Shown here piece after piece: positions 17,355-52,796 of a DNA stretch of 64,000 bases. The first letter of the stretch is position 1; the number at the start of each line of letters is the position of its first letter. The position numbers were made by a program, and so were the translations under genes. The DNA comes from an uncultured archaeon (GTDB lineage Archaea; Iainarchaeota; Iainarchaeia; Iainarchaeales; JAAZKV01), in contig CAYWUL010000001.1 of the NCBI GenBank assembly GCA_964461205.1, positions 28,549 to 92,548 of the forward strand, in the 5' to 3' direction. Under the pieces are notes generated by a model. It ran no database searches. It worked only from the letters and a program-made list of their open reading frames with translations, and had not been told where the DNA came from.

Positions 17355-18805
17355 TCAAAAACTAAAATATATGAATTGTGTTCCACTATTCACTCCTAAA
17401 AATAATATTGCTTCAATCGCAATTAAGAATAACAAAAACTTTGTTTTCCAAGAAAATTTCTCAAATTCAATCAATTTCTTTTCTCTCAGAATCTCAACAA
17501 TAAGCAAACCAAGTATCAATACTAAAGCCAACAAAACCCCAAATATTCCTCCAATGCCTCCTAAATTTACAAAACTTAAATCCTTTCCAATCCCAACAAA
17601 TAAATTTCCAATAATATATACTGCTTCTCCGAAATTATTTGCCCTGAAAAATATCCATGCAAAAGAAACAACAACAAAAGTAATTATTATTTTAAAATAA
17701 TTTGGAATCCTCCATAATTTTTGCATTCTTCCTTTTGGAATTTTTTCAAAAACAATTATTATTCCGTGGATAAAACCCCAAATGGCAAATGTAATTCCTG
17801 CGCCGTGCCACAAACCACTAACAACAAACACAATTAATAAATTAAAATACCATCTTGGCACAGAAACCCTACTCCCCCCTAATGGAATATACAAATAATC
17901 CCTAAACCAAGTTGACAAAGAAATGTGCCATCTGTGCCAGAACTCCGTAATTGATTTTGACAAGTATGGTCTCCTAAAATTGTCCATTATTTTTATTCCT
18001 AACATTTTTGCTGAACCAATTGCCATTAATGAATAAGCAGCAAAATCAATGTAGATTTGAAAAGTGAAAAAGAATGTTGCTAACAACAAGGGAATTCCAG
18101 TATATTCTAACGGAGAACCATAAATAGTGTTAACAACTATTGCTAATCTATCAGCAATAACCACTTTCAAAAATAGGCCCCAAACAAATAACCCAATTCC
18201 AATCCTCAAATTTTCTTTTTTTATTACAATCCTTTTTTTTAATTGAGGAATCAAGTTATCTGCTCTTTCAATTGGTCCTGCAAGCACAGTTGGAAAGAAC
18301 GCAACAAAAGTTGCAAGTATTCCAAGATGTCTCTCAGCTTTTCTGCCCCTATAAACATCTATTACATAACCAAGAGATTGGAAGGTGTAAAAAGAAATTC
18401 CTATTGGTAAAATAATTTGTAAAATAATTGGACTGAATGGAATTCCAATTCCTGCTAACAAATCCCGAGTAACATTGTTGAACAAATTAAAATATTTGAA
18501 AGCAAATAACATTCCAATATTGTAAATAATCGCGATTAACAGAACCATTTTGCTATGTTTTTCTTGTCTTTTTTGCTTTGTTTTTTTGATTTTTGTTTTG
18601 TATATTTTTCAATTAGTATTGCAGCAAAATAATTCACAATTGTTGCAAAAATAATTAACAGAACATATTCTGCCTTTAGTGACATATAAAAATAATAACT
18701 CGCGAGTAGAACAACAACCCATCCTCTATTCCACTTTTTTAGAACGAATAAAAGCACTAAGAGAATTGGAAGAAATAAAAAATATTCTATTGAGTTAAAT
18801 AACAT
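17355..18805 (-). CDS. MBOAT family O-acyltransferase (AlgI/DltB/PatA-like), split into two ORFs by a frame change near 18536-18551
   Basis: The N-terminal ORF (18536-18805, MLFNSIEYFLFLPI...) and C-terminal ORF (17355-18548, ...WHRWHISLSTWFRDYLYIPLGG) together form one typical MBOAT. They overlap by 13 nt at an A4 run. Confidence 0.7.
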
Positions 18806-20514: not shown

Positions 20515-21201
20515 ATGGAAAAAATAGTTATTTTGTGTGGTGGAAAAGGAACTCGTTTGAGACCATTAACAAAAAAAGTTCCAAAACCACTTGTTCCACT
20601 AAATGGAAAGCCAATTCTAGAATATTTAATGAATTTATGTGCAAAACAAGGATATACTGATTTTATTATTTGTACGGGGTATAAAGCGGGGTTAGTTGAA
20701 AAAACGGTTAAAGAATTTGTAAGCAAAGATTGGAATGTTAAGTTTGTTAATTCTGGAGAAAAAGCAAGTATCCTTGATAGAATAATTGATGCGAGTGAAT
20801 ATTGTGGAGAGAAATTTGCTGTTTGTTATGGGGATGCAATAGCAGACATTAATTTCAGGGAGCTTCTTAATTTTAATGCCAAAAATAATACTTTAATCAC
20901 TATGTCATTATATCAAATGCAGAGTCCATTTGGTTTAATAGAAACAGAAGGAAATAAAGTAACTGCTTTTAAAGAAAAACCAGTTCTTCCTTTTTGGTTT
21001 AATATTGGTTTTTTTGCTTTTGAAAAAAAAATTTTGATTGGAGCAAAAGGCAAGGATTGGGTAAAATTTTTAGAAGAAAATGCAAGCAAGGGTAATATCT
21101 CGGCAATGAAGCATGAGGGAGAGCATTTAACCTTTAATACAGAGCATGAAAAAGCAGAAGCCGAAAAGAAGATAAGTGTTTTCACACACGTTTATGAATA
21201 G
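20515..21201 (+). CDS. sugar-1-phosphate nucleotidyltransferase (glucose-1-P cytidylyltransferase-like)
   Basis: VILCGGKGTRLRPLTKKVPKPLVPLNGKPIL...DFIICTGYK...YGDAIADI...EKP...NIGFFAF. Confidence 0.7.
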   Translation: MEKIVILCGGKGTRLRPLTKKVPKPLVPLNGKPILEYLMNLCAKQGYTDFIICTGYKAGLVEKTVKEFVSKDWNVKFVNSGEKASILDRIIDASEYCGEKFAVCYGDAIADINFRELLNFNAKNNTLITMSLYQMQSPFGLIETEGNKVTAFKEKPVLPFWFNIGFFAFEKKILIGAKGKDWVKFLEENASKGNISAMKHEGEHLTFNTEHEKAEAEKKISVFTHVYE

Positions 21202-21224: not shown

Positions 21225-22208
21225 ATGAATTGGGAAGGAAAAAAAGTTTTAGTAACCGGCGGATCGGGTTTTATTGGTTCACACTTAGTAAAAAAACTTG
21301 TTAATGAAGGAGCAGATGTTACTGTATTAGTTCGTTACCAAGAAAGATTAGATAATATTAGGGTAAGTCCAATTTGGGAAAAAATAAATTTAATGGAAAC
21401 AGATATTAGGAATAGTGATATTTCAAAAAAATTAAATGAATTAGCTCCAGAAATAATTTTTCACTTAGCTGCTTTCAATCACGTTGGAAGAAGTTTTTCA
21501 AATGTGCAAGAATGTTTTGATGTTAACGCTTGGGCAACAGCTAATTTATTAGAATCTTATGATGGTTATGAAAGATTTGTTTATACTTCAACCAGCGAAG
21601 TTTATGGTTTACAAGATAAAGTTCCTTTCGTTGAAACAATGATTCCTCAACCACAAAGCCCATATTCAGTTACAAAATATGCTGGAGAATTATATGCCTT
21701 AATGAAACAAAGACAAACAAATTTGCCAATTGCTGTAATAAGGCCGTTTAATGTTTTTGGACCATATCAAAGCCCTTCTGCAGTAATTCCTGACTTGATT
21801 GTTAAAGCATTAAAAGGAGAAAGAATTTCTACCACAAAAGGAAAACAAACAAGAGAATTTAATTTTGTTGAAAACACAGTTGACGGTTTTTTGTTAATGG
21901 CAGAAAAGAAAGAAGCTATTGGCCAAGTAATTAATATTGGTGGCGGAGAAAGTTGCGAAGTTTCTATTGCTGACTTAGTAAAAAAGATTGCTAAATATTC
22001 TGAATCAAAATCAGAACTTGGTATTGGAGATATAGAATATAGACCTAATGAAATTTGGAGAATGTATTCTAATTCAGAGAAAGCAAAAAAGCTTCTTGGC
22101 TGGGAACCAAAGATTTCTTTTGATGAAGGACTAAAGAAAACTATAGCATGGTTCAAAGAATATAACAAAGAATTTGAAGAAGAAGATGCTCCAATAAAAA
22201 AATTCTGA
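21225..22208 (+). CDS. NAD-dependent sugar-nucleotide dehydratase/epimerase (extended SDR)
   Basis: VLVTGGSGFIGSHLVKKL, TSTSEVYG, YSVTKYAGE catalytic triad region. Confidence 0.7.
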   Translation: MNWEGKKVLVTGGSGFIGSHLVKKLVNEGADVTVLVRYQERLDNIRVSPIWEKINLMETDIRNSDISKKLNELAPEIIFHLAAFNHVGRSFSNVQECFDVNAWATANLLESYDGYERFVYTSTSEVYGLQDKVPFVETMIPQPQSPYSVTKYAGELYALMKQRQTNLPIAVIRPFNVFGPYQSPSAVIPDLIVKALKGERISTTKGKQTREFNFVENTVDGFLLMAEKKEAIGQVINIGGGESCEVSIADLVKKIAKYSESKSELGIGDIEYRPNEIWRMYSNSEKAKKLLGWEPKISFDEGLKKTIAWFKEYNKEFEEEDAPIKKF

Positions 22209-23975: not shown

Positions 23976-24935
23976 ATGATAGAAGCAAGTGAAGAAGCAC
24001 CAAAAAATTGGAATGAAAATATTTCAAAATACAAAACAGCACACATCTATAATACTTCTAATTATGCAGAAGTAATGAAACAATCATTTAATCACAAACC
24101 TATTTTTTTCAAAACAGTAAACAATTTAGCTTTTTTGCTTGGCTTTGAACAAGAATTAAGCGGTATTGCCAGCAAGTTAGGAAAAGGATTTGTTGCATTT
24201 GCTCCACCAGTTGGAAAAGAAGAAGAATTTTCAGCATTAAGAAAAGCAGTGGAAGAAGAATGTAAGAAAAGAAAAATTGTTTCAATCACTTTTTGGAGTT
24301 CAACTCTTTGGAACAAAAATACAGATAAATATTTTTTTGGATATGAAAAAGTTGAAATGCAAAATGTTGTTACTATATTGAATAAAACAGAAGAAGAATT
24401 ATTTGAAAGTTTAGATAGTGCTGCTAAAAAGAATTTGAAAAAAGTGCCGGAACAATTAGAAAATGTAAAAGAAGGAACAAAAGAAGATTTGGACGATTAT
24501 TATAATAATTATAAGGCACATCATGAAGCAATTGGTTTAGAAGTTTATCCAAAAAAATTCTTTGATTTATTATTTTTAGAGGTTGTTGAAAAAGGATTGG
24601 GAAAGTTTTTTGTGCTTCGTGACTCAGATAATGTTTTTGCTGCGGGTTTAATAGTTGGCATGTTTGGAAAAAGTGTTTATGAATTGAGTATTTCTAGTAA
24701 TTGGGAGAAAAGAGATTTGTTTCCAAATGATGTGTTAAAATGGCATACTATAAAATGGGCTAAAGAGAATGGTTTTGAACAATTTGATTTAAGTAATATT
24801 GCAGTTGATGTGGAAGAAGGTTCAAAACAACACGGAGTTAACAGGTTTAAGAAAAAGTTTGGAGAAGTTGTTTCTTACAATGCATATAAGAAAAAAGTGG
24901 GTGCTGCAAAAATACTTTCAAAACTAAAAAAATAA
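23976..24935 (+). CDS. FemAB-like (GNAT-fold, aminoacyl-tRNA-dependent peptidyltransferase family-like) protein
   Basis: 319 aa. NWNENI...YNTSNYAEVMKQ..., SAAKKNLKKV, YKAHHEAIGLEVYPKKFF, FAAGLIV...YELSISS...LKWHTIKWAKENGFEQFDL resemble FemAB/Acetyltransf_6 family landmarks. Confidence 0.5.
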   Translation: MIEASEEAPKNWNENISKYKTAHIYNTSNYAEVMKQSFNHKPIFFKTVNNLAFLLGFEQELSGIASKLGKGFVAFAPPVGKEEEFSALRKAVEEECKKRKIVSITFWSSTLWNKNTDKYFFGYEKVEMQNVVTILNKTEEELFESLDSAAKKNLKKVPEQLENVKEGTKEDLDDYYNNYKAHHEAIGLEVYPKKFFDLLFLEVVEKGLGKFFVLRDSDNVFAAGLIVGMFGKSVYELSISSNWEKRDLFPNDVLKWHTIKWAKENGFEQFDLSNIAVDVEEGSKQHGVNRFKKKFGEVVSYNAYKKKVGAAKILSKLKK

Positions 24936-24963: not shown

Positions 24964-26133
24964 TTATTTTGAAAAAGATTTAATCCTTTCTGCTAGTTCA
25001 ATTACTTGTTCTTTTTTTAGTCCTTGTACTCCTATTGGAACCATGTATTCAGAAACTTTCTTTGACACCGGAAACTGTGTATAATTTTTTCCAATATTTT
25101 TACTAAAATCTTTAGTATAAAACAATCCTGTCTCCCACCCTTCCTCTTGTAACCTAAACCAAATACTTTCAATATTCTCTCTTGGCTTTTTGAAATAAAC
25201 AGGGACGCGAGTAGCAACATTTATTTCTTTTTTACCATCTTCAGTAAAAACAAACTTTTCTTCTCCCAATTCTTCCTTTAACAATTCAGTGTTCTTTCTT
25301 GTTTGGTTAATTATTTTAGGGAGCATTTTTATTGATACTAATGCGAGAGAAATCTCAAACAGGTCAAGCCTTTCCTTGTTAACTTCTTTTCCACCATAAC
25401 CTAGTTTGCTCAATAATATATAAGGAAAGTCAACATCTGGAAAAAAATTTTTCCAGAATGAAATTTTTGTCTCAAGAAGTTTTTTCCCAAAAGCGTTGTT
25501 TCTTTTATCTGCATTTCTCTCCGCCATGCATCTTTCATAAATTTCTTTGTTATTCGTGCACAATACTCCCCCGTTTCCAACAGGCACATTTTTTCTTAAA
25601 CTAAAAATACTTATTTCTCCAAAAGAACCGGCTTTTTTCCCATTCTTTGCTCCTAAAGAGTGTGCACAGTCTTCAATCAAGGTTAGATTGTTATCCTTGC
25701 AAAAATCAGTTAGTTTTTTTGAATCAATTGCTTTTCCATAAGAATAAATTGCTTGTAGTATTTTAGTGTCTTTTCCTATTTTTTGTTTTGCTTTTTTTAG
25801 ATCAATATTATAAGTCTCATCAATATCTACTGGCAATGTTTTGTATCTTTTATTAATTATTTCATGAACTTGTTTGCAAGTATAAGCTTGTACAAGTACC
25901 TCTTTTTTCTTTTCAATATTCAGTGAATTTAGGCTGGTCATTAGTGCGTGGTTTCCTGATCCAAACAAAAGAGATTTTTTTACTCCAATTACTTTTGCAA
26001 ATTCTTTCTCAAATCTTTTTTCTTTTTCTTCAATATTTTTTTCTTTGTTTAGTTCTTTTTGTAGTTCTTTTGAGTCAATTAAATGATAAAAATATGCCTT
26101 TCTTTTTCGGTAATTTTTACTTAATACTTTCAT
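24964..26133 (-). CDS. DegT/DnrJ/EryC1/StrS-family PLP-dependent sugar aminotransferase
   Basis: LFGSGNHALMTSL, IEDCAHSLGA, and SIFSLRKNVPVGNGG (Schiff-base Lys region). Confidence 0.65.
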   Translation of the reverse strand: MKVLSKNYRKRKAYFYHLIDSKELQKELNKEKNIEEKEKRFEKEFAKVIGVKKSLLFGSGNHALMTSLNSLNIEKKKEVLVQAYTCKQVHEIINKRYKTLPVDIDETYNIDLKKAKQKIGKDTKILQAIYSYGKAIDSKKLTDFCKDNNLTLIEDCAHSLGAKNGKKAGSFGEISIFSLRKNVPVGNGGVLCTNNKEIYERCMAERNADKRNNAFGKKLLETKISFWKNFFPDVDFPYILLSKLGYGGKEVNKERLDLFEISLALVSIKMLPKIINQTRKNTELLKEELGEEKFVFTEDGKKEINVATRVPVYFKKPRENIESIWFRLQEEGWETGLFYTKDFSKNIGKNYTQFPVSKKVSEYMVPIGVQGLKKEQVIELAERIKSFSK

Positions 26134-32293: not shown

Positions 32294-33616
32294 TTAAAAC
32301 TTATTTTTTACTTCCTTAAATAATATTGGAATAAGGTGTCTAATCTCCTTATAAAAATATTTTAGGTCTCTTGGCATTGGTATTAAAGAGAGTTTTATTC
32401 CCCCGACTTTTCTGAGTAATAAGTATCCAGTAAAACCATTAATTGCTGACCAAATTATTTGGGCAATAATGAGTCCTTTTACTCCTAACCATGGGACAAA
32501 GATAAGCAAAACAATAATCTCGATGGTAAAAGTAATTATTGCTTGTAACAAATTGAATTGGACCTTATTAATGGACTTGAAAATAGTGTCAATTTTTCTA
32601 TATCCTTCAAAGATAAATAGCAATGCTAGTAATGGAATTAATTCTAGTGCAGCAGTATATTTTGGAAAAAAAATGCCGATTATTAGGGGGGCACAAATAA
32701 TTAGGGCTATAGACATAATTACTAGTAAAATTATTGCACCTTTAATACAAATTGAACTATAGTTTTCAATATTTTTTTTGTTATTAAAGTTTTTTGAGTT
32801 TAATGGAAATAATACATCTCCAATTGCTTCACTTGGTGCGTTGAGTGCTAGAGAAGTGACTTTTCTTGCAACATAGTATACTCCAAGTATTGCTGGCCCG
32901 ATGAACAAACCCATTATAATTACTTGAATCATTGATCCTCCTTCTTTTATGACCTCTACTATAACAGAAAATTTTCCGTAAGTGATTACTTCTTTTTTAT
33001 TTATTGGTTTGTTTTTGAAAGAAGTTTTTTTCAAATAAAAAATATAAATTAAAGCAGATCCAATTAAAGACAAATACTTAGAATAAAAGGCACCTTCAAT
33101 GCCATACCCCAAAATAACAACAAATAAAGCAATAAAAATTAAATTAATTAGATTTTCAAGCATTGATGCAACAAAGACTCGATTAAAATTTTCCATTCCT
33201 TTGTTGAGTGATGCAAAAATAGTGGTTAATGGGTTTAGGAACAATATTGCTCCAGCCATAATAATGATGCTAAGTGTTGTGCCCCCCACACTCGTAATTA
33301 TTATGTTATTAAATAACATTAATCCCAGAAATATTGCTCCCGCGATTAGAAATTCTGCAATAAATACTTTTTTGAAAAGACTTTTTGAACTCTTTTGGGC
33401 AGTAAAATTCGTTAGTAAGTTGTTAAGTGTTGTGCTTCCAAACAAATTTGCAAATCCTAAAGCAAATGCGATTATATAGTTAAACAAACCATACTCGGCA
33501 GAGCTTAGTGCAGCAGTTAAAAGAATTGTGTAAGTAAATGAAAAAAGAACAGGGAGTAATTTTTCTGCAAAAGAAAAAGAACTATTTTTAACAAACAAGT
33601 ATTTTGCGTTGCTCAT
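32294..33616 (-). CDS. MOP-superfamily oligosaccharide flippase (Wzx/RfbX-like)
   Basis: 440 aa, about 12-14 TM, N-terminal KNSSFSFAEKLLPVLFSFTYTILLT typical of polysaccharide biosynthesis flippases. Confidence 0.65.
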   Translation of the reverse strand: MSNAKYLFVKNSSFSFAEKLLPVLFSFTYTILLTAALSSAEYGLFNYIIAFALGFANLFGSTTLNNLLTNFTAQKSSKSLFKKVFIAEFLIAGAIFLGLMLFNNIIITSVGGTTLSIIIMAGAILFLNPLTTIFASLNKGMENFNRVFVASMLENLINLIFIALFVVILGYGIEGAFYSKYLSLIGSALIYIFYLKKTSFKNKPINKKEVITYGKFSVIVEVIKEGGSMIQVIIMGLFIGPAILGVYYVARKVTSLALNAPSEAIGDVLFPLNSKNFNNKKNIENYSSICIKGAIILLVIMSIALIICAPLIIGIFFPKYTAALELIPLLALLFIFEGYRKIDTIFKSINKVQFNLLQAIITFTIEIIVLLIFVPWLGVKGLIIAQIIWSAINGFTGYLLLRKVGGIKLSLIPMPRDLKYFYKEIRHLIPILFKEVKNKF

Positions 33617-33729: not shown

Positions 33730-35448
33730 ATGCTAGAAAAAACTTTTTACTTTATAAGTATCTTCTTAGTATCGCTAATGATTCTTGGGATTTATCTAGG
33801 GTATTCTGGGCTTATTTCTTTTCAAGTAACTCTTATTACAATAATAATTTCTGCGGTTATTTCTTTATTCATTGTTGTAAAACAAAATAAAGAAGCGGAT
33901 AAAAATTTTAAGTCCAAAAAGAAAAAATTAACAGTACTTGTTTTTTTAATTTTCTTATTTTTTTTTGCTTTTCTTGTTTTTCCGGAAGGGGTTTTTCCAG
34001 TTACTTGTTCGGACATAATGAATCATTCTCTTGCAACCAGAATAATTGGGCAAACAGGATTTATTCCGAATTCTGAATCAGATGCTTTTTTTTCGGGAAT
34101 TCCATTAACTTATGTGCATGTATATCCTCAAGGATTTTATGCTATTTCAGCTCAGATTTATACTCTTTTTCCAAATGCATATTTGGTAAATTCAGTTCTT
34201 GCAATTATTTTAACTTTTTTCTCAGCAATTGGTATCTTTATTATTACTAAAAAAATTTCAAATGAAAACTCTGCGATTTTAGCAACACTAATATTTTTTT
34301 CTTCAATAACCACTTTGTGGATAATCGAGTCTGGTTTTATACCACAGATTCTTGGATCTTTTTTTCTTTTGGTAATACTTTTAGCTTACATACAAAAAAA
34401 CAAAGTATTATTTTTTATTTCATCTATTGGTTTAATCTCTTATCCTCCACTAATAGCCGTTTTATTTTTGTTCTTGATTATTGATTTTTTATTAAAATCT
34501 AATTTTTCTTTTAAAAAAATACAGAAAAACTTTTTTGAATGGATGAAATATTTTATTCTAGCAATTATATCTTTTTTTGTTGTGTTTCCAGAATTCTTTG
34601 GTTTACTAATACAATATACAACCGTTGAGAAATTTTGGAAAGGGGCCTTGTTAATAAGGGGCGGAATTTTCTCACCAAATCCGTTTGGTTTGTTAATTTT
34701 TGTCCCTGTTCTTCTTGTATTATATCTTTTTATTTTTAGGAAGAAAAAATTCTCTATTGGTCTTAGGCCTTGTTTTGCTATGTTGGTTGCTGGGTTACTA
34801 ATGAGCGGGGCGGTGGTATTTTATTTTATTATAAATTTATTACTTACAATAGTTGATGTAAAACAAATTCATTCATTGTACCAAGCAGTTAAATTTTTTT
34901 ATTTTGCGTTAATAATTGCAAGTATTTTTTCAGGAATCGGTTTTGAATTATTGTTTTCTAAATTTACAAAAGGAAAAATAAAATTTATCTTAATTGCAGT
35001 ACTATTATTTGGTGTTGTTTATTTTTTTGGTTACTCAACTGTCTTATTTGCAAAAGATTCTGAAGTAATTGGTTTTTATTCCACTTCAGAATTTGTTGAA
35101 TCTTTGCCAGAAGGATCAATAATTGGTGTGGATTCATGCGCACTAAAACTAGATTATGTTCCGAACCCTTTTATTTATAAATCGCTTTTTGATAATCCTG
35201 ATCCAAGTGGAGAAAATATTTGCAGGCAAACAGAAATAACCCGTGCTTTTCGGCCATCCTATGCAACACACGATTTTATTGATGGGCGGTTTAGGATTTT
35301 TGATTCTACTAGTAAAGAGTTAGTTTTAATTGGTAATGAAATAAATCCAACAATGAGCAATATTAATTATTTTTACACAACTTGTTTAAGCATAAATGCC
35401 CCTCTTATTTTTGAATCAGGAAAAACCAGGATTTATAAAATAAATTAA
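33730..35448 (+). CDS. large polytopic membrane protein with C-terminal soluble domain (possible Wzy-like polymerase or GT-C enzyme); function unknown
   Basis: 572 aa, at least 12 hydrophobic segments followed by about 130 soluble residues. Divergent from the Wzx gene. No diagnostic motif recognised. Confidence 0.3.
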   Translation: MLEKTFYFISIFLVSLMILGIYLGYSGLISFQVTLITIIISAVISLFIVVKQNKEADKNFKSKKKKLTVLVFLIFLFFFAFLVFPEGVFPVTCSDIMNHSLATRIIGQTGFIPNSESDAFFSGIPLTYVHVYPQGFYAISAQIYTLFPNAYLVNSVLAIILTFFSAIGIFIITKKISNENSAILATLIFFSSITTLWIIESGFIPQILGSFFLLVILLAYIQKNKVLFFISSIGLISYPPLIAVLFLFLIIDFLLKSNFSFKKIQKNFFEWMKYFILAIISFFVVFPEFFGLLIQYTTVEKFWKGALLIRGGIFSPNPFGLLIFVPVLLVLYLFIFRKKKFSIGLRPCFAMLVAGLLMSGAVVFYFIINLLLTIVDVKQIHSLYQAVKFFYFALIIASIFSGIGFELLFSKFTKGKIKFILIAVLLFGVVYFFGYSTVLFAKDSEVIGFYSTSEFVESLPEGSIIGVDSCALKLDYVPNPFIYKSLFDNPDPSGENICRQTEITRAFRPSYATHDFIDGRFRIFDSTSKELVLIGNEINPTMSNINYFYTTCLSINAPLIFESGKTRIYKIN

Positions 35449-44045: not shown

Positions 44046-45134
44046 TTAGAAGTTAGTTGACTTTTTCCAGACTTTTTCCACCTTAATTGAGTCCATAAAT
44101 TTCTGTTTTTGTTTAATATCAAAGGTTCCTTTCACATAACAAGGCCATTTTTTGTTTTTTACTTGGAAAGCAAATCTTTTTTTTCCTTCTAAAAAAATTC
44201 TTTTTGAATCAGTTGGCCCAAATATTCCAATAGTTGGGATTTTTACAGCAATTGCAATATGCATTAATCCAGTATCATTTCCAATGTATCCATTTGATTT
44301 TGAAAATAAGTATGTAACTTCTTTCAAATTTAACCTTCCTGTGAAATCAAAAACCCCCCTTTTGTTATGTATAAGTTGAATGGTTTTTTTACTTCCTTCT
44401 TCTCCTTTTGCACCACAAAACACTATTTTTTGTCCATTCTCAATGATTTTATCTGAAAGCAAAGCATAATTCTTTTCTCCCCAACCCTTTGCTTCCGCTC
44501 CATCTCTAGTATTTGGATTGATTATTATAAAGTCCTTTAAGCCTTCTTTTTTAAGCATTTTTTCTACTTTTGCACACTTTTCAACCTCTATTACATACTC
44601 TTTTTCCTTTATTTTTTTGTTTCCCAATGCCTTTGCAATCAATAAATAATTGTCAATAATATTGTAGTTTTCTTTTGCCCCTTGCCATTTTCCAATCTCA
44701 AAATTTGCTTCTAACTTGCTTCCTTTCAAAAAACCAATTACATATTTTGGTTTTGATTTCCACGCAATAATTGTACTCTCTAAAGAATCATTCATTGAAA
44801 CAACAAGATCAAACCCTGTTTCAACTTTTCCTTTATCAACAATAACTTTGTCAATTGTTGGATTTAATTCAGCGATTTGTTTTGTTGCTCCTTTGCAAAG
44901 CAAAGTTGTTGTTGCTCTGGGAAATTGTTTGGCAATTTCTTTTATTGCCGGGGTTGACATTAAATAATCTCCTATGCCATATAATTGAATAAACAAAATT
45001 GCTCCTACTTCTTTTTTTTCGAAAACAATTTTATTTCTGAACAACCCTTTTACCGCGACCCGTCCTAATTGTCTAGTGACCTTTGTTGAATAATACTTTG
45101 CAATTCCTTGCTTTGATAATTCTTTATCAACCAT
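44046..45134 (-). CDS. GT9 family glycosyltransferase (heptosyltransferase-like)
   Basis: YIGNDTGLMHIAIAVKIPTIGIFGPT is the classical GT9 C-terminal motif. N-terminal LGDYLMSTPAI. Confidence 0.7.
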   Translation of the reverse strand: MVDKELSKQGIAKYYSTKVTRQLGRVAVKGLFRNKIVFEKKEVGAILFIQLYGIGDYLMSTPAIKEIAKQFPRATTTLLCKGATKQIAELNPTIDKVIVDKGKVETGFDLVVSMNDSLESTIIAWKSKPKYVIGFLKGSKLEANFEIGKWQGAKENYNIIDNYLLIAKALGNKKIKEKEYVIEVEKCAKVEKMLKKEGLKDFIIINPNTRDGAEAKGWGEKNYALLSDKIIENGQKIVFCGAKGEEGSKKTIQLIHNKRGVFDFTGRLNLKEVTYLFSKSNGYIGNDTGLMHIAIAVKIPTIGIFGPTDSKRIFLEGKKRFAFQVKNKKWPCYVKGTFDIKQKQKFMDSIKVEKVWKKSTNF

Positions 45135-46089
45135 TTATTTTCCCCCAAATTAATCCAATTCCAAAAACAACACTTCTTAAAAACAAAATTATTGGACTTG
45201 CTAATGCAACTGCTTTATCTTTTTTCCAAGAAAGAGAAAACAATTTTGCTCCAAGCAACAAATGTATTATTAAGAAAAATAAAGCAACAAACACAAGACT
45301 AATTGCTAACAAGGAAAAAATTAATGCGAGGATAACTAAATAAAAACAAATGATTTGTAATTTCAATGTTTGTGGAGTATATGAATCCTTCAACATCTTT
45401 TTCTTGTGCTTTGAATACATTCTTGGTCTATAAAACGCACGAAAGAATTTTATTTTCAAATATTTTGACAATTTTTTAGGATGAAAATGATAAACAATTG
45501 CTCTTGGGTTAAAAACAATTCTTCCTCCTTTTTCATGCAATTTATAACTCAATTCAGGGTCTTCTCCGCTAGCAATCGGAAAACTCTCATCAAAACCGCC
45601 AACAGAAAAATATTCTTTTTTATTGTAAGCCGCACTATAACTACCAACCCAATCAATGCTCTTCGATTTTTTCATTTTTTCATATCTCTCTTCAATTTCT
45701 ATTTGAGAAAACCTGGCCGTTAGTTCTTTTTGTTTAGTTTTATATGCTCCTTGAACAGCAACAACTTTCTTATCATCAAAAGGTTTTATCATTTCCTCTA
45801 ACCAATTTTTTTCAGCAACACAATCCGAATCAATAAATAAAATTATTTCTCCCTTGGCTTTTTTTGCCCCAATATTCCTTGCTTTTGCTGGCCCTTTGTT
45901 TTTTTGATAAAAATAGCCAACTTTTTTTGATTTAATTTTTTGAATTTCTTTTTTTGTGTTATCTATGCTTCCATCATCAACACAAATAATCTCAAATTGT
46001 TTCTTTGTTTTTTGTTCTAATAAAGAATTAAGAGTATTTGAAATAGTTTTTTCGCAATTGTAACACGGAATTATTATTGAATAAAACAT
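45127..46089 (-). CDS. GT2 glycosyltransferase with C-terminal TM helices
   Basis: IIIPCYNCEKT...CVDDGSIDNT...IDSDCV. Start codon shares a base with the upstream radical-SAM stop (TAATG). Confidence 0.8.
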   Translation of the reverse strand: MFYSIIIPCYNCEKTISNTLNSLLEQKTKKQFEIICVDDGSIDNTKKEIQKIKSKKVGYFYQKNKGPAKARNIGAKKAKGEIILFIDSDCVAEKNWLEEMIKPFDDKKVVAVQGAYKTKQKELTARFSQIEIEERYEKMKKSKSIDWVGSYSAAYNKKEYFSVGGFDESFPIASGEDPELSYKLHEKGGRIVFNPRAIVYHFHPKKLSKYLKIKFFRAFYRPRMYSKHKKKMLKDSYTPQTLKLQIICFYLVILALIFSLLAISLVFVALFFLIIHLLLGAKLFSLSWKKDKAVALASPIILFLRSVVFGIGLIWGKING

Positions 46090-47558
46090 TATTTTCTCAC
46101 TAAATATTTTAATAAAGTAAAACCGCCCTTTGCTAGCCGTGGTATTTCTCGAGGATTAGTAACTGCTTGTGTTACTTTTGATAAAACATACCTTGGCCTA
46201 ACATAAAAAGCTCTTCTTGACTCATCTGTTAATTCGTTTAATTCTTTTGAACTTAACCCTGGCCTAGACAACAAAGTTCTGTGTGTTCCATCTTTGTTCA
46301 ACCAATCACTCCACTTTTTTGCTTTCAAATAACCTTTTTTCTTTGCCCAATTATAAGTCTCTGTTCCCGGATAAACCATTACTGGAAAAAATTGTGCTGT
46401 GTCCGGATTTAATTCTCTCGCAAACTTTGCTGTTTCTCTTATTGTTTCTTTTGTCTCTCCTTGATTTCCAAACATAAAACAACCATGGACCAGTATTCTT
46501 GCTTTTTTTGAATCCTTCATAAACTGCCTTATGCCATTTGGGGTAGTCCCCTTATGAATATTATTTAATATTTCTTGATTTGCACTTTCAATTCCAACGC
46601 ACATTAATCTACAATGAGCTTTTTTCATCCACTTTAGTACTTCCAAAGAAACATCAGCTCTTGCATTACAACTCCAAGTTAACTTTATTTTACGTTTTAT
46701 TATTTCTTTGCAAAGCTCAATGGTTCTTTCTTTGTCTTGTGTTAAAGTATCATCTTCAACCATAACTTCTTTTACTTCTGGCAAATTTTTTTCTATCCAT
46801 GCAAACTCATCAACAACACTCTTCACACTTCTCTTTCTATACAATCTTCCTGAAAATGTTTGTGGCCATTTACAAAAAGCACATCTATTTGGGCACCCTC
46901 TTCCAGTAAGAATAGTAACTTCTGGATATTGAACAGATGGATAAAAATAATTTTCAATTCCAAGGTATTCTTTGTAAATCTCTGAAACAAAGGGCAACCA
47001 ATCTAATTCTTTTTCGCTTGGCGGATCTCTTTCAAGTGTTTTAATAATTTTTTTTCCTTTTTTGTAAGCAATTCCTTTTACATTACTCAAACTTTTTTTT
47101 TCTTCCAACACCTTAACAATTTCTGGCAAAATAAAATCATATTCTCTTATTGCAACAAGGTCTGCCTTAGTTTCTTTCAAACTTCTTTCTGGCAACACAC
47201 TAACATGGTCTCCTACTAAGACAAGCGTTGTGTTTGGAAATTCTTTTTTTATTCTTGCAACAATTTTTTTGTCATTATCAAATGAAGGAGTTACCGTATC
47301 AATAACAATCATTTCTGGTTCAAATTCTTTTATTCTTTTCATTGTCTGATTTAAAGTAATGTTTTCTCCAGAAGCATCCAATAACAAAACATCATTCTTA
47401 CCTTTTTTCAATGCACCTGTTGCATAAGCCAACCAAATAGGATAATACACACAGCCACCCTTACTTACTCCTGGACTTCTAGATGTCCTAGAAAATTTTT
47501 TCATAAAAGGAGGATTCAACATCAATACTTTCATCTTTCTCACATCTTGTTCATTCAC
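46089..47558 (-). CDS. B12-binding-domain radical SAM enzyme, paralog D (HpnJ-like flavour)
   Basis: LVLVGDHVSVLP, then EVTILTGRGCPNRCAFCKWPQT. CVGIESA landmark. Confidence 0.7.
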   Translation of the reverse strand: MNEQDVRKMKVLMLNPPFMKKFSRTSRSPGVSKGGCVYYPIWLAYATGALKKGKNDVLLLDASGENITLNQTMKRIKEFEPEMIVIDTVTPSFDNDKKIVARIKKEFPNTTLVLVGDHVSVLPERSLKETKADLVAIREYDFILPEIVKVLEEKKSLSNVKGIAYKKGKKIIKTLERDPPSEKELDWLPFVSEIYKEYLGIENYFYPSVQYPEVTILTGRGCPNRCAFCKWPQTFSGRLYRKRSVKSVVDEFAWIEKNLPEVKEVMVEDDTLTQDKERTIELCKEIIKRKIKLTWSCNARADVSLEVLKWMKKAHCRLMCVGIESANQEILNNIHKGTTPNGIRQFMKDSKKARILVHGCFMFGNQGETKETIRETAKFARELNPDTAQFFPVMVYPGTETYNWAKKKGYLKAKKWSDWLNKDGTHRTLLSRPGLSSKELNELTDESRRAFYVRPRYVLSKVTQAVTNPREIPRLAKGGFTLLKYLVRK

Positions 47559-47646
47559 TATTTTTTGTTTTATTTTCTCTAAAAATTAAATTGCTTCTAT
47601 TATTAAACCTTCTTGGTACATCCGAGCGAAAACAAATAATTCCTAT

Positions 47647-48531
47647 TCAAATAAGCAATTTACCATACTTTATGCTTCCATAAAACCTAACACATTTTAT
47701 TCCAATTACATAAAGTATTCCCAGCAAAATAATTACTATCTTTTTCCAACCCTTGTTACCTCTAACTAATACAACGCCTTGTGGAGAACTAAAATCAAAT
47801 TTTCCTTTCCACATACCTGTTGCAGTAAAAAAATCTAGTTTTGGATTTCTAATAAAACCTAATTTTACATCAAAAAATTCTTTTCCTCTTTTTGGGTGCT
47901 TCTTGAATAATAATGGATCAAATCTATGTATCTTCATTCTTGACCAACCGTACTTCAACACTGATTTAATATTTTTTTTTGCAATTGAATGTTCGTGCTC
48001 AAAATTTGCGGTTTTATAAGTAAAAACTCCTGTGTATCCTTTGTCAAATGCCCTAAATGCCAAATCAGTATCATCTCTAAAACCAGTTCCTTTTTCATTA
48101 AAACCCTCGTCAAAACCATTTAATTCTTTCAATATGTTTGTTTTCCAAACAGTTGCATTTCCTCCGGTTTCAGAAAAAGGAGAAACAAAAGCAATACTCT
48201 TTTCAGTGAAATATTTTAGAATAGTTGAAACAAAATTGTTTTTGTAAAAGATGTCTCCAGCCGATAAACAAATATATTCTCCTCTTGCTTTTTTTATCGC
48301 TTTATTTAATCCTTTAACTCTTCCTTTTCCAAGAGTACTCATAAAGATTATTTGTTTTCCATCTGCTAAACTCTTAATAAAATCTTCAGAATCATCATCG
48401 CTTTTATCATCAACTATCAAAATTTCTATTTTTCCTTTGTATTTTTGATTCAAAATCCTTTGAATATTATCCTGAATAGTTTTTCCTTGATTTTTTGTAG
48501 CAATAATAAAAGTAATATCAAACTGTGCCAT
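47647..48531 (-). CDS. GT2 glycosyltransferase
   Basis: ITFIIATKNQ...VDDKSDDDS...SAGD. Internal start MAQFDI (48531) avoids overlap with the Alg13-like stop. Confidence 0.7.
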   Translation of the reverse strand: MAQFDITFIIATKNQGKTIQDNIQRILNQKYKGKIEILIVDDKSDDDSEDFIKSLADGKQIIFMSTLGKGRVKGLNKAIKKARGEYICLSAGDIFYKNNFVSTILKYFTEKSIAFVSPFSETGGNATVWKTNILKELNGFDEGFNEKGTGFRDDTDLAFRAFDKGYTGVFTYKTANFEHEHSIAKKNIKSVLKYGWSRMKIHRFDPLLFKKHPKRGKEFFDVKLGFIRNPKLDFFTATGMWKGKFDFSSPQGVVLVRGNKGWKKIVIILLGILYVIGIKCVRFYGSIKYGKLLI

Positions 48532-48532
48532 T

Positions 48533-49024
48533 TTAATTCTTCTCCTGTTCACTTACAAATTTATTCAAAATATTAATTATTCCTTTTGCATGCTCTGTTT
48601 TTTCTAATCTTAATGTTTTCACATTTTTTAAAGCACTTTCAATTTCTTCAACTTCACAAACAATTGCCTGTTTTCTTTTCTTTATTGCTTCTGCCAATTC
48701 TAATTGGTGATCATTAGTGTGTTCGCCAAAAATTTTTCTTCTTGCCACAACAATCATCTTTTTCTCAAATTGCAAACCAGTTCCAATATTTCCTTCTCCA
48801 GCATGAGTAATAAACAGTGAACAATTCTTTACTTTTTTATCAAACTCTTCAATTCCTAAAAACTTTTTATACTCAATATTTTTTGACTTTGGTTTGTATT
48901 TACAATGCCCTGTTTGTGCAAAAACTTTCTCTTTCAAAATTTTTCTTTCAATTAAAGAATCAATTTCTTTCAACAATCTATCAAATTGTTGTTTATGTGT
49001 TCCAACGCTAACAAAAATAACCAT
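48533..49024 (-). CDS. Alg13-like glycosyltransferase catalytic subunit (Glyco_tran_28_C)
   Basis: MVIFVSVGTHKQQFDRL...LFITHAGEGNIG...EHTNDHQLELAEA. Start moved to the internal ATG; the upstream part of the ORF overlaps the Alg14-like gene. Confidence 0.7.
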   Translation of the reverse strand: MVIFVSVGTHKQQFDRLLKEIDSLIERKILKEKVFAQTGHCKYKPKSKNIEYKKFLGIEEFDKKVKNCSLFITHAGEGNIGTGLQFEKKMIVVARRKIFGEHTNDHQLELAEAIKKRKQAIVCEVEEIESALKNVKTLRLEKTEHAKGIINILNKFVSEQEKN

Positions 49025-49044
49025 GTTATCACAACCAAGACTAG

Positions 49045-49503
49045 CTAAAAAATACTTCCTCCGTATTTGCCCTTTGGATAAGATTTTTTCAACTCTTTCC
49101 ACTGATAAACAAACAAATCGGCTATTGGGTAAACTATTTTTCCTGTAATACTTGGTTTTATTGGTCTGCAAAAACTTTCAATATAAATTATTTTTGCTCC
49201 CAATAATTTTCCTAAATAACAAGTAGCTAAAGCAGCATCGGCGCCAGTAGAAATTATTATCTCTGGTTTCTCTTTTAACAAAATTTTTAGACTCTGAAAA
49301 AAGTTTTGAAAGAATTTTAGTGGATTTCTAGCAGGGCATTCAACAAAAAAAGTCTTTTCTTTTTTTGCCAAACTTTTTCCATCTTCTCTATTAAAAGTAA
49401 CAAAATAATAACTATGTTTTTTATAAAATGTTTTTAATTGAAGCATTTCTTTTAAGTGTCCTCCACTACTACAAACCAAGCAAATCTTTTTCATAAAAAC
49501 CAA
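49045..49503 (-). CDS. Alg14-like glycosyltransferase accessory subunit
   Basis: CSSGGHLKEMLQL...PEIIISTGADAALATCYLGKLLGAKIIYIESFCR...SITGKI...VYQW. Confidence 0.7.
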   Translation of the reverse strand: MVFMKKICLVCSSGGHLKEMLQLKTFYKKHSYYFVTFNREDGKSLAKKEKTFFVECPARNPLKFFQNFFQSLKILLKEKPEIIISTGADAALATCYLGKLLGAKIIYIESFCRPIKPSITGKIVYPIADLFVYQWKELKKSYPKGKYGGSIF

Positions 49504-49600
49504 TTCTATTTTCTTTATTTATTCTATTTTTTTATTTGTTGGGTATTTCCTTTTTTGTTTGTTTTTTTATTTTTCGCTTTTGTTTAAACTTTTTTATTTT

Positions 49601-50629
49601 TTAAATTATAATTATTTGATACGTGTTGAGTAAGAACAAAACCATTACAATTAAACAAACAATAAATTGAGCAAATAATAATTGTTTTACAACTTGTTTT
49701 TCAGTTTTGTTTCCCATAAAATAATGCGTTAAACTTTCTTTCTTTTTTGGCGATAATAAAAAACCATTTTTTGTTGGTTTTCCAAAACTCTCTCCTTGGA
49801 ATTTTGTTCTTGACTTCAAATATAACTCAACAAAGAACAAAACTAATAACATTATTCCAATTTTTTCCATATCACTAATAATAGAAATAACTGCAATACT
49901 TGCTCCGGTCATTAATGTTAATGAATCTCCGCCAAATATTTTGGCAGGAAACCAATTATATTTTAAGAAACCAATTAATGCTCCCAAAATAGCAACAGCA
50001 AAAATTAATGCCTCCATTTTTCCATTTATAAAAGAAATTATTCCAAGTGTTCCAATAATTAGAAAACCTAGTCCGGCTTCCAAACCATTTAATCCCGCAA
50101 GCATATTTGTTGCATTGCTTGCCCCCGTAACTCCTATCGGAATAAATATTAAAGAATAAATTAAACCAAAACTAATTACTCCAAAAGGAAACAAGAATTC
50201 ACTTGGTAATAAACCAATTATTGGAAGAGAAATTGGGGGATTAGATATTTGCACTGCCATTAAAGGAAGTGCGGCAATAATTGGGAACAATGCGTGTTGC
50301 CATTGTCTAATCCCTTTTTTCCAACCAATTATATCATCAAGCAAACCAATAAAAACAATAATAGAAATTGTAAAAAAACCAGCAAAAATTAAAGTTAAAT
50401 CAAGATTAAATAAATTCAAATAAGTATTCAAAAATATTGCGCTTAAAATCCCAAAAGTAAAACCAAGAAAAACTACTGCTCCTCCTAACTCGGCAACCAT
50501 TGGCTTGTTGAATTTGTTCATATCTTTTCCAACAAACCCTCTTTCTTTCATTGTGGAAATAAAATTAGGCATTATGGCTAAAACTGCTATTAAAGCAACA
50601 ATTGCAGGAAGTATAAATAACATAAACAA
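49601..50629 (-). CDS. aglH: polyprenol-phosphate:UDP-GlcNAc GlcNAc-1-phosphate transferase (AglH/Alg7, MraY-WecA superfamily)
   Basis: 10-11 TM. LLDDIIGWKKG and ATNMLAGLNGLEAG motifs of the archaeal/eukaryotic GPT type. Confidence 0.75.
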   Translation of the reverse strand: MFMLFILPAIVALIAVLAIMPNFISTMKERGFVGKDMNKFNKPMVAELGGAVVFLGFTFGILSAIFLNTYLNLFNLDLTLIFAGFFTISIIVFIGLLDDIIGWKKGIRQWQHALFPIIAALPLMAVQISNPPISLPIIGLLPSEFLFPFGVISFGLIYSLIFIPIGVTGASNATNMLAGLNGLEAGLGFLIIGTLGIISFINGKMEALIFAVAILGALIGFLKYNWFPAKIFGGDSLTLMTGASIAVISIISDMEKIGIMLLVLFFVELYLKSRTKFQGESFGKPTKNGFLLSPKKKESLTHYFMGNKTEKQVVKQLLFAQFIVCLIVMVLFLLNTYQIIII

Positions 50630-50699
50630 AAAATCTTTCTTTGACTTTTAAATAAGGTTGGTACAATTCTATTCTTTCAATTTATTTTGTTATCAAATT

Positions 50700-52796
50700 C
50701 TATTTTATTTTGAATATCTTCAGGCCACCGCTGTCAAAAACCGGTTCGTAGTATTTAGAAGTTTCATCTGAATTAAAATAAACCTTTGCAAGATTTGTTT
50801 CATTGTATGAAGGACCAATAACAATCAAAATATTGTCGTTTCTATAGTAAAACAAAGGAAGTTGCCCATTGTAAAAGTCTGTTGGAGCGCTGGTCCATTT
50901 ATCTTTTGCCATTTGTTCAAATTGTTCTGTAGGAATTGTTTGTCCGTTGCACACTAAACCATTGTCAGAGGGAGAACAACCTATAAACCTAGACTGGAAA
51001 TCGGAAAAATTATTTGAAACTGAGGAATCAATTTTTCCAGCAGCATAAAATGCAAAAGATTGCCCTGAAGAAAAATTATTTGGATGTATTATTACATAGT
51101 CGGCACCGATTTTGTTCTTTGCAATATCATATGCTTTATTGACATCACTTGTAATCATAAACTCAGCATAATTTGAGTTTGCCTCTGCAGAATAATTCCT
51201 ATTGTCTGAAGAAAAATTCCTTTCAGTTACAAATGCGAGTTGGTGGCCTTCTCCCCACCAATTGAAGAACTTTGCTTCTTTTGTAGTATTATTATTTATC
51301 CAATCCATTGCATCAATCCACCGCGTATCAGAATTTGCAAAAGGTTGGAATTGATTCAAATATATTGGTGCTGCTGCCACACCTAAAACAATAATAAAGA
51401 ACAATGCCCCGATAATAATTTTCGCTTCAATTCCTTTTTCAGCATTGTATTTCTCAAGTAACTTAAAAAAGAAGTCAACTGCTAACAAGGCTCCCATTAC
51501 TAATCCAAGTCCAAAAACAAAAGTAAACTTCAACTTATAATATGCCATAAATAAAGTAACAAGTGTTCCAAACCAAAGTAAGACCTGCAAGTGAATATCT
51601 TTTCTTTTTAATAAAAACAAGCCAAAAGGGAAAAGAACCAAACCAATAATTGGGAGTATAAGCAATACATTATATTTTATTCCAAAAGAAGTTATTCCAA
51701 GACTTTCTTCTCCCACCATAGAAATAATACTTGTCCGCCCGCTATTGTAAAAGAAATCAGGCACAATAACAAACATAAATGCCACTAATAATAATCCAAT
51801 ATATAGAAGTGCTATTGCTAGATAAAGACCCATCTTTCTTCCTGACTTATCAAGACTCTGTAAATAAAAAGCCAATGCAATGAAGGCAATTACACCTATA
51901 ACCCCAATTAATAAAGCAAAAAATCCATCAACATTAAGCACTTCAACTAATACATTTGTCGCAGCAGTAATCCAATCTGAACCATAAATAAAAGAAATAA
52001 TTGTGTAAATACCAAGAGCAATTGCTGACTTTATTATAATGTTTAATACTGCTGAATCCTTGAGTGGCTTTTTCTTTGAATCATATGTCTTGTAAAGAAG
52101 GATTATTGCTATTGAAGGAATTAGTACCACTGGAATAAGTAAATGCAGACTCCATCCGATGGCCATCAAAGAAAAGAAAATTCCTGCTAAAACAGCATTT
52201 ATCAAATCTTTTTTTGTTCTTGTATCTGTTTTCAGTGCTCTAACAAAAAACACTAAACCAATAACCATCCACAAAAAGCCCATAGAATTATCTCCTTGTG
52301 CACCAGCCATTGTTCGGTAAGCAAAAGCAGGAGTAACTGCAGTTAAAAAGCCAGCAATTAAACCAATTTTCTTACTATCAAAAATTTCTTTTCCGAGAAA
52401 GTACATCCCAATGCTTATTAGTGCTCCAAAAATAACTGGAAAGAACTGTACTGTAAAAGCGAGCAACTCTTTGTTGAAAGCCCCCAATGCAACTATTTCA
52501 TAAAGAAACCAACTAAGGTAGTGGTATAACGAAGGCGGTGCAGAAACCGCTCCATTAGGAAGCTGATAGTAAACATTTGGGTCAATATTATTTATGTAAC
52601 CTTGTTGTGCTAGTTCTTCAACAAGCCTTGCGTGATAATAAGCATCAGGCTCAAATAAATAATTTCCTTCAAATCTAACAATGTTACTTCTTATTGACAT
52701 TGCAAACAAAAATAATACGATTAGTACAAGAATCATTTTTCTATTATCATAGACTTTTTTTTTTATCTCTTTAATATTTGCATTCAAAAAAATCAC
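50700..52796 (-). CDS. aglB: oligosaccharyltransferase AglB (STT3 homolog)
   Basis: 698 aa, 13-TM-like N-terminal half with first-loop EPDAYYH, loop SMVGEES, and C-terminal domain with AMDWINNNT...FFNWWGEGHQLAF at the WWDYG position. Confidence 0.85.
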   Translation of the reverse strand: MIFLNANIKEIKKKVYDNRKMILVLIVLFLFAMSIRSNIVRFEGNYLFEPDAYYHARLVEELAQQGYINNIDPNVYYQLPNGAVSAPPSLYHYLSWFLYEIVALGAFNKELLAFTVQFFPVIFGALISIGMYFLGKEIFDSKKIGLIAGFLTAVTPAFAYRTMAGAQGDNSMGFLWMVIGLVFFVRALKTDTRTKKDLINAVLAGIFFSLMAIGWSLHLLIPVVLIPSIAIILLYKTYDSKKKPLKDSAVLNIIIKSAIALGIYTIISFIYGSDWITAATNVLVEVLNVDGFFALLIGVIGVIAFIALAFYLQSLDKSGRKMGLYLAIALLYIGLLLVAFMFVIVPDFFYNSGRTSIISMVGEESLGITSFGIKYNVLLILPIIGLVLFPFGLFLLKRKDIHLQVLLWFGTLVTLFMAYYKLKFTFVFGLGLVMGALLAVDFFFKLLEKYNAEKGIEAKIIIGALFFIIVLGVAAAPIYLNQFQPFANSDTRWIDAMDWINNNTTKEAKFFNWWGEGHQLAFVTERNFSSDNRNYSAEANSNYAEFMITSDVNKAYDIAKNKIGADYVIIHPNNFSSGQSFAFYAAGKIDSSVSNNFSDFQSRFIGCSPSDNGLVCNGQTIPTEQFEQMAKDKWTSAPTDFYNGQLPLFYYRNDNILIVIGPSYNETNLAKVYFNSDETSKYYEPVFDSGGLKIFKIK

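Follow-up and report, generated by a model that had tools for sequence, protein, structure and literature searches.

A split EpsE/F-type glycosyltransferase in a probable aglB-centred N-glycosylation cluster of an Iainarchaeota archaeon

The 64,000-nt stretch of DNA analysed here (the window; contig CAYWUL010000001.1 of assembly GCA_964461205.1, positions 28,549 to 92,548) comes from an uncultured Iainarchaeota (DPANN) archaeon and carries an aglB-centred archaeal N-glycosylation cluster in which the probable second-step enzyme is a split glycosyltransferase (GT) of the EpsE/F type. We consider it likely that the gene block acts as the initiation module for a lipid-linked N-glycan precursor, encoded beside the oligosaccharyltransferase (OST). 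What the data show directly is the family identity of the gene products, the folds of the two GT halves, the split and soluble build of the pair, and its linkage in archaea to AglB and to a polyprenyl-phosphate N-acetylhexosamine (HexNAc)-1-phosphate transferase (GPT), as against its linkage in bacteria to a PHPT, that is, a glucose (Glc)-1-phosphate transferase. The original prediction had placed four genes here, for AglB, GPT, an Alg14-like and an Alg13-like protein, and their coordinates, common (minus) strand and family-level identities were borne out by the open reading frames (ORFs) and their Pfam matches. With the GT2 gene that follows them, the genes are:

50700..52796, minus strand: AglB/STT3 OST, 698 aa (PF02516, 3.4e-19)
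49601..50629, minus strand: Alg7/AglH/DPAGT1-type GPT of the PNPT family, ~340 aa, polytopic (PF00953, 3.5e-33)
49045..49494, minus strand: Alg14-like/EpsE/PssD/Cps14F-type N-terminal (acceptor-side) half of a split MurG-like GT-B enzyme, 149 aa (PF08660, 1.9e-22)
48533..49024, minus strand: Alg13-like/EpsF/PssE/Cps14G-type C-terminal (nucleotide-sugar-binding) half, 163 aa (PF04101, 2.6e-12)
47647..48531, minus strand: GT2 glycosyltransferase with one C-terminal transmembrane (TM) segment (PF00535, 1.7e-20)

The intergenic gaps between AglB, GPT, the Alg14-like and the Alg13-like gene measure 70, 106 and 20 nt, respectively. Since the ATG of the GT2 gene, at 48531, sits 1 nt past the stop codon of the Alg13-like gene, GT2 can be counted as the fifth gene of the same block. 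The Alg14-like and Alg13-like halves (hereafter, the pair) are encoded separately: the ORF of the former ends in a stop codon, and the 20-nt gap divides it from that of the latter. The start of the Alg14-like protein is likely the ATG at 49494 (MKKICLVCSSGGH, giving 149 aa), which is the form of the public protein entry, rather than the TTG at 49503. No hydrophobic segment was predicted in either half, in agreement with the earlier remark that the Alg14-like protein has no N-terminal TM anchor; AglB, like GPT, is polytopic. The motifs that had been quoted for GPT and the pair were all recovered (SSGGHLKEM, YIESFCR, FVSVGTH, THAGEGNIG, NDHQLELA, LLDDIIGW and NATNMLAGLNGLEAG). A gene for the TATA-binding protein adjoins the block, and the nearest relatives of the locus are Candidatus Iainarchaeum/Diapherotrites metagenome-assembled genomes.

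The description of the GPT as Alg7-like held up. Among solved structures, human DPAGT1, the Alg7 ortholog, is the best match (4.5e-18, 69 bits), with MraY reaching only 1.6e-7, and the NCBIfam WecA model scored a mere 25 bits. The Mg/UDP block, NATNMLAGLNGLEAG, is like that of DPAGT1 (NAINILAGINGLEAG) and unlike that of E. coli MraY (NAVNLTDGLDGL). Furthermore, the protein carries the DD motif (LLDDIIGW) and the NxxNxLAGxNGLEAG signature of eukaryotes and archaea, and its homologs come from Diapherotrites/Iainarchaeota. Judged from these sequence features, the Alg7/DPAGT1-like name is justified. A role in pseudomurein or peptidoglycan-like synthesis was considered and rejected: the archaeal MraY model, whose cut-off is 450 bits, gave only 48, and no Mur ligases were found in the window. 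In AglB the N-terminal part is polytopic and the C-terminal domain soluble; the protein scored 128 bits with TIGR04154, below the cut-off of that model.

The linkage between GPT, the pair and AglB is beyond chance. Four relatives were retrieved through the identity of their Alg14-like protein (74, 59, 55 and 52%), and AglB, GPT and the pair occurred together in all of them, with the gene order of the window in three; in the remaining one (locus L002) AglB and GPT are divergent from the pair. When one genome was scanned for each GTDB species, 80 loci were obtained, the flanks of which were searched with the window proteins. A GPT homolog lay near the pair in 26 of the 31 archaeal loci with at least 1.1 kb of upstream sequence, and directly upstream on the same strand in 21 of the 31, mostly 12-216 nt away, while AglB was found in 17 of the 22 archaeal loci whose upstream flank reached 3.3 kb or more. 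In these 17 loci AglB immediately precedes GPT, and even where orientations have been rearranged (L002, L011, L013, L015) it still adjoins. Represented among the archaeal loci are Iainarchaeota, Micrarchaeota, Aenigmatarchaeota and Hydrothermarchaeota; the proposed genetic linkage of the pair to GPT and OST thus extends over several archaeal phyla. No PHPT was detected near the pair in any of the 31 archaeal loci or in the window, whereas an EpsD-like PHPT was found in 24 of 44 bacterial loci, usually directly upstream, and GPT/AglB in only one bacterial locus, L017. That contig (JAFCBY010000057.1, titled Candidatus Falkowbacteria and thus assigned to a CPR bacterium) contains the archaeal AglB-GPT-Alg14-Alg13 block, the proteins of which group with those of Iainarchaeota. 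Mis-binning of an archaeal contig is the probable explanation, with an inter-domain transfer as the alternative.

The pairwise distances of GPT, Alg14-like and Alg13-like proteins also co-vary over 24 loci (Mantel r = 0.72, 0.61 and 0.81; p <= 5e-4). This coupling of the pair to GPT and OST across archaeal phyla indicates that the pair very probably performs the second step on the GPT product. Moreover, a GT2 gene follows the pair in many archaeal loci, and three Iainarchaeota loci (L019:3585-, L021:6458-, L027:6465-) encode the Alg13-like half and GT2 as a single fused ORF of 465-477 aa, a Rosetta-stone link suggesting that GT2 acts right after the pair. The protein families, the split architecture and the occurrence of EpsE/F-like genes in DPANN archaea are already published, the last of these by Meyer 2022. 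An operon of the pair with an Alg7-type GPT and AglB across archaeal phyla, and the dichotomy between PNPT in archaea and PHPT in bacteria, were not found in the literature searched, although supplementary data may hold them.

The pair had been called eukaryote-like, but comparison gave no support for a specifically eukaryotic affinity. By similarity and by its indels, the sequence type of the pair is that of EpsE/F, PssD/E and Cps14F/G. The Alg14-like half passes the curated hidden Markov model NF041549 (PssD; 160.8 bits, cut-off 110), and the Alg13-like half falls a borderline 0.2 bits short of NF041548 (PssE; 119.8 bits, cut-off 120). Against reference sequences verified by exact look-up, the Alg14-like half shows 52% identity to its Lactiplantibacillus (L.) plantarum counterpart and 37% to EpsE of pNZ4000, and the Alg13-like half 39% to its L. 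plantarum counterpart and 41% to EpsF of pNZ4000, versus ~26% each to human ALG14 and ALG13. For human ALG14 itself, pNZ4000 EpsE is a better match (80 bits) than the window protein (66 bits). In a tblastn search of plasmids, exopolysaccharide (EPS) plasmids of Lactobacillales, pNZ4000 among them, matched at up to 51% identity.

The indels point the same way. An insertion of 4-5 residues (R..xFGEH before N(D/N)HQ) is present in all 35 archaeal and in 50 of 53 bacterial Alg13-type proteins, and absent from human and yeast Alg13 and from MurG. Likewise, H(A/G)G and HQ are spaced by 32 residues in each of the 35 archaeal sequences and in 50 of the 53 bacterial ones, as compared with 28 in human Alg13 and 27 in MurG. 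The Alg13-like half of the window shows the corresponding motifs HAGEG and FGEHTNDHQ. As for the other half, the Alg14-type proteins of archaea and bacteria have neither the N-terminal anchor nor the internal loop of eukaryotic Alg14, a loop that MurG also has; the GGH motif occupies residues 11-13 in the Alg14-like protein and starts at 46-73 in the yeast and mammalian Alg14 proteins compared. Within the xFGEH insertion (window 48700-48760, residues ~95-107 of the Alg13-like protein), Glu-His is invariant in EpsF-type halves from archaea and bacteria alike. The insertion is missing from eukaryotic Alg13 and from MurG, which carry instead an acidic residue after the HAGxGS block, a residue that the EpsF type is without; it is a speculation that the insertion may supply a nucleotide- or sugar-binding acid.

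In confident structure models, both proteins fold as halves of a GT-B enzyme. The AlphaFold 2 model of the Alg14-like protein (pLDDT 92.6) has the N-domain of E. coli MurG (1F0K) as its best Foldseek match (TMq 0.79), and that of the Alg13-like protein (pLDDT 90.9) matches nucleotide-sugar-binding GT-B C-domains. In the latter, the C-terminal helix 144-162 is modelled with lower confidence than the rest. In yeast, the C-terminal helix of Alg13 mediates Alg13-Alg14 binding, and low confidence is what would be expected of a helix that crosses to a partner domain. Searched against the PDB, the family profile of the Alg13-like half matched yeast Alg13 best (2KS6/2JZC, 2e-4), and single-sequence phmmer searches of both halves returned no true relative.

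Maximum-likelihood trees (LG+C20+F+G4) were built from 95 Alg14-type and 91 Alg13-type sequences, with E. coli MurG as the root; the sampling was without Asgard, TACK and Agl24 sequences and thin in eukaryotic diversity (a human plus yeast Alg14 profile run against a large protein collection returned only mammals and Saccharomyces). The window halves fall in archaea-only clades (support 100/83 for the Alg14 type and 96/83 for the Alg13 type), and the main group of Bacillota forms a clade of its own (100/100 and 100/98, respectively), in which no archaeal sequences are nested. The stem of the eukaryotic clade measures 2.9 substitutions/site, and its placement has a support of only 38-41. When rooted with MurG, archaea appear as a grade giving rise to bacteria and eukaryotes; archaeal monophyly was, however, not rejected in the approximately unbiased (AU) test (p = 0.17), and the MurG rooting is unreliable because the outgroup branch is 8-10 substitutions/site long. 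With this long branch and the AU result, no conclusion is drawn on the direction of transfer. A grouping with EpsE/F, which the original prediction had named as the outcome that would speak against it, was thus obtained in part: similarity and indels are of the EpsE/F type, but the trees place the archaeal sequences in clades of their own, with a deep branching order that lacks support. In published trees, eukaryotic Alg13 and Alg14 are sister to those of Thor- and Odinarchaeota and not of DPANN (Meyer 2022), and the few archaeal split genes known at the time had been read as horizontal transfers (Lombard 2016).

Bacterial systems are among those nearest to the block. EpsE/EpsF of Lactococcus pNZ4000, Cps14F/Cps14G of S. 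pneumoniae and PssD/PssE of Rhizobium consist of the same two soluble GT-B halves (~150 and ~160 aa), encoded in the same order, N-half then C-half, directly after the priming enzyme; identity to the window proteins is 37-52% for the N-half and 39-41% for the C-half, and the GGH, IESF(C)R and R..FGEH.NDHQ blocks are shared together with the indels. They differ in that the bacterial genes follow a PHPT in Wzx/Wzy-type EPS or capsular polysaccharide clusters with Wzz, tyrosine-kinase and phosphatase genes, whereas the archaeal pair follows an Alg7-type PNPT beside AglB. This different priming-enzyme context argues that the acceptor, and possibly the donor, differs between the archaeal and bacterial pairs. 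Eukaryotic Alg7 with Alg13/Alg14 comprises the same three families, that is, a DPAGT1-type PNPT and the split MurG-like GT halves in the same second-step position, here joined by the STT3-family OST; the eukaryotic pair differs in the Alg14 anchor and loop, in having no xFGEH insertion and in its low identity; no supported affinity between the two emerged in the trees, and the indels argue against a specific one. N-glycosylation in Sulfolobus acidocaldarius likewise opens with an Alg7-type GPT (AglH), after which a MurG/Alg13-14 homolog (Agl24) works on the Dol-PP-linked first sugar, but Agl24 is, by its published description, a single fused polypeptide of a Crenarchaeota/Bathyarchaeota clade, as opposed to the split, EpsE/F-type enzyme of the window (Meyer 2022). 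MraY and MurG follow the same logic of a PNPT and then a MurG-like GT, and the Alg14-like model superposes on the MurG N-domain as mentioned above; MurG is, however, a fused protein whose sequence has diverged strongly (blastp E = 0.004 over a 42-residue stretch), and the GPT of the window is nearer to DPAGT1 than to MraY.

In the reaction sequence that we propose, GPT would move HexNAc-1-phosphate (most simply N-acetylglucosamine (GlcNAc)-1-phosphate) from a UDP-sugar to dolichyl phosphate, giving HexNAc-PP-dolichol. The two soluble halves would join as one MurG-like GT-B enzyme, with the Alg14-like half on the acceptor side, the Alg13-like half on the nucleotide-sugar side and the C-terminal helix of the latter probably docking on its partner, and would attach a second sugar in β-1,4 linkage, for which GlcNAc, Glc, galactose (Gal), glucuronic acid (GlcA) or another sugar are the candidate donors. 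The membrane-anchored GT2 is a probable third-sugar transferase; GTs and tailoring enzymes encoded in the surrounding island would lengthen the chain, a Wzx-like flippase would carry the product across the membrane, and AglB would pass the finished glycan to Asn. We infer the order of the reactions, the dolichol pyrophosphate carrier and, by analogy, the β-1,4 linkage. In Alg13/14, Agl24 and MurG, it is UDP-GlcNAc that serves as donor, onto a HexNAc or N-acetylmuramic acid acceptor. MurG, Alg13/14, Agl24 and EpsE/F all catalyse the second step, in which a sugar is joined in β-1,4 linkage to a first one carried on lipid-PP (Meyer 2022; NCBIfam names), and characterised EpsE/F-type enzymes transfer Glc, Gal or GlcA from the UDP-sugar onto a Glc acceptor, with EpsE/EpsF of pNZ4000 a characterised β-1,4-glucosyltransferase (Meyer 2022). 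The archaeal group combines the sequence type of the EpsE/F enzymes with the acceptor context of Alg13/14, Agl24 and MurG.

Several observations weigh against an initiation module for N-glycosylation. The locus sequence occurs in lake-water metagenomes, but a search for transcript evidence found it in lake-water DNA runs only and in no RNA runs that would show co-transcription of the block. The catalytic block of AglB reads WWGEG (residues 513-517; window 51246-51260) instead of the hallmark WWD(Y/E)G. Among the AglB proteins of 21 relatives, 15 have WWD(E/V/N)G, and forms without the Asp are WWGEG in L007, WWNQG in L001, WWSYG in L022 and L025, and WWGSG in L028; because the loss of the Asp recurs in related lineages, an assembly error is unlikely, and the activity or sequon recognition of this AglB may be unusual. 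Archaeal loci without GPT and AglB within 6 kb also exist (L027 and L036, plus L012 and L014 with short flanks). One of them, L027, is in a complete Iainarchaeum genome (CP064981.1) and has the pair with the Alg13-GT2 fusion, so that the block is not universal in the phylum. In addition, the island encodes a pathway for an NDP-amino-dideoxy sugar (NTP-transferase, 4,6-dehydratase, DegT aminotransferase, acetyltransferase), and the sugar handled by GPT may therefore not be GlcNAc. Finally, the review PMC11407970 reports no biochemistry or glycan structure for any DPANN archaeon, and a Nanobdella study lists agl genes only.

Whether or not the second sugar is GlcNAc separates two readings that both keep the pair in the N-glycan pathway. 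If the pair is the functional equivalent of eukaryotic Alg13/Alg14, it would use UDP-GlcNAc to make GlcNAc-β-1,4-GlcNAc-PP-dolichol (chitobiose), to be extended and then transferred by AglB. The position of the pair directly behind an Alg7/DPAGT1-like GPT and beside AglB reproduces the make-up of the eukaryotic initiation complex, the UDP-HexNAc that GPT requires could serve the second step too, yeast Alg13 is the best solved relative of the family profile, and Agl24 shows that archaea make chitobiose with a homolog (Meyer 2022). The NDHQLELA block is, furthermore, almost the same as NNHQLELA of human; this block is, however, family-wide and no marker of the donor. Examined for a signal of the donor sugar, the HAGxG and HQ blocks proved to be family-wide and gave no discrimination. 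The window pair is also no nearer to eukaryotic Alg13/14 than are bacterial EpsE/F, as the ALG14 scores above illustrate, it shares derived indels with the bacterial type that transfers Glc, Gal or GlcA while lacking the eukaryotic features, and donors vary even between close EpsE/F relatives (Meyer 2022). A chitobiose core is therefore a hypothesis that cannot be read from sequence, given the donors of the characterised EpsE/F-type members, and we hold it as possible but doubtful. The other reading, in which Glc, Gal, GlcA or a modified sugar takes the place of GlcNAc on HexNAc-PP-dolichol to give a non-chitobiose core, is held just as tentatively. It draws on the membership of the pair in the PssD/PssE-Cps14F/G-EpsE/F group (by the curated models and 39-52% identity), on the UDP-Glc, UDP-Gal and UDP-GlcA used by characterised members (Meyer 2022; NCBIfam names WelK and PssD) and on the high diversity of archaeal N-glycans (PMC11407970). 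Yet the characterised EpsE/F-type enzymes all act on a Glc-PP-lipid made by a PHPT, whereas the acceptor here is made by a PNPT, which suggests that the archaeal group is functionally distinct and that its donor may have changed too; that the archaeal sequences form clades of their own in the trees also counts against this reading.

Two further explanations would detach the pair from N-glycosylation. The product of GPT, the pair and GT2 could be a lipid-linked polysaccharide of the cell surface, or some other glycoconjugate, without transfer to protein, with the proximity of AglB due to a general clustering of envelope genes. The 40-kb island with its Wzx-like flippase, many GTs, GT9 and MBOAT genes would fit such a product, as would the deviant AglB motif and the Hydrothermarchaeota and Aenigmatarchaeota loci that have GPT and the pair with no AglB in the available flank. 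However, AglB is present in most loci with enough flanking sequence and adjoins even when rearranged, and no Wzy, Wzz or tyrosine-kinase genes of the bacterial EPS type were found next to the pair; we regard this explanation as improbable. It is more improbable still, to the point of being hardly credible, that the pair is a recent transfer of bacterial EPS genes without a specific role beside its neighbours, as the ~50% identity to Bacillota proteins and the transfer reading of Lombard 2016 might suggest. The pair is widespread in at least four archaeal phyla and keeps its context there, its archaeal sequences vary widely among themselves (44-79% identity) and co-vary with GPT, they are not nested in the monophyletic Bacillota clade, and GC content is uniform, at ~30%, over the region.

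If the pair works as an initiation-module component, the conserved block predicts that DPANN N-glycans are built on dolichol pyrophosphate, starting with HexNAc followed by a β-1,4-linked sugar. DPANN archaea depend on surface contact with their hosts. A split second-step enzyme, previously tied to eukaryotic N-glycosylation and bacterial slime synthesis, is found beside Alg7 and STT3 homologs in archaea, and the contrast between PNPT with AglB in archaea and PHPT in bacteria offers a handle on the switch of acceptor and on the origin of eukaryotic Alg13/14. One could go further and regard the DPANN block as a prokaryotic counterpart of the eukaryotic Alg7-Alg13-Alg14 complex, in which a soluble heterodimer at GPT would make chitobiose-PP-dolichol for an STT3-family OST, with the split form having arisen in archaeal N-glycosylation and bacterial EpsE/F being a later offshoot that swapped PNPT for PHPT. 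We consider this unlikely as it stands; if true, it would bear on whether Alg13/14 originated in bacteria or in archaea, a point on which Lombard 2016 and Meyer 2022 disagree.

The block lies in a glycan island of ~40 kb (window 11098-53000), which also holds several methyltransferase genes, a gene for a DUF2334 protein, GT4, GT2 and GT9 genes and four genes for B12-dependent radical SAM enzymes. Features of this island are:

11098-12054 and 21225-22208: two 4,6-dehydratase/epimerases
17355-18548: MBOAT
18806-20386: PMT_2-like membrane GT
20515-21201: NTP-transferase
23976-24935: FemAB/GNAT-like acyltransferase
24964-26133: DegT aminotransferase
32294-33616: Wzx-like flippase
44046-45134, minus strand: GT9 (lipopolysaccharide heptosyltransferase family), kept in the same position in L001
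46089..47558, minus strand: B12-binding radical SAM enzyme, HpnJ-like (TIGR03471, 416 bits, below the cut-off; PF04055; PF02310)

A 572-aa ORF of the island (33730-35448, plus strand) has no Pfam match at 1e-5. The HpnJ-like enzyme, homologs of which were found in 19 archaeal loci, is probably a sugar-tailoring enzyme and forms part of the context rather than of the core proposal. In Hydrothermarchaeota-type loci, the radical SAM gene closes the order GPT-Alg14-Alg13-radical SAM. GT2 and the HpnJ-like gene recur together beside the pair (window 46089-48531; L029, L031, L034, L035 and L041), a pairing that is reminiscent of HpnI/HpnJ in the synthesis of hopanoid cyclitol ether.

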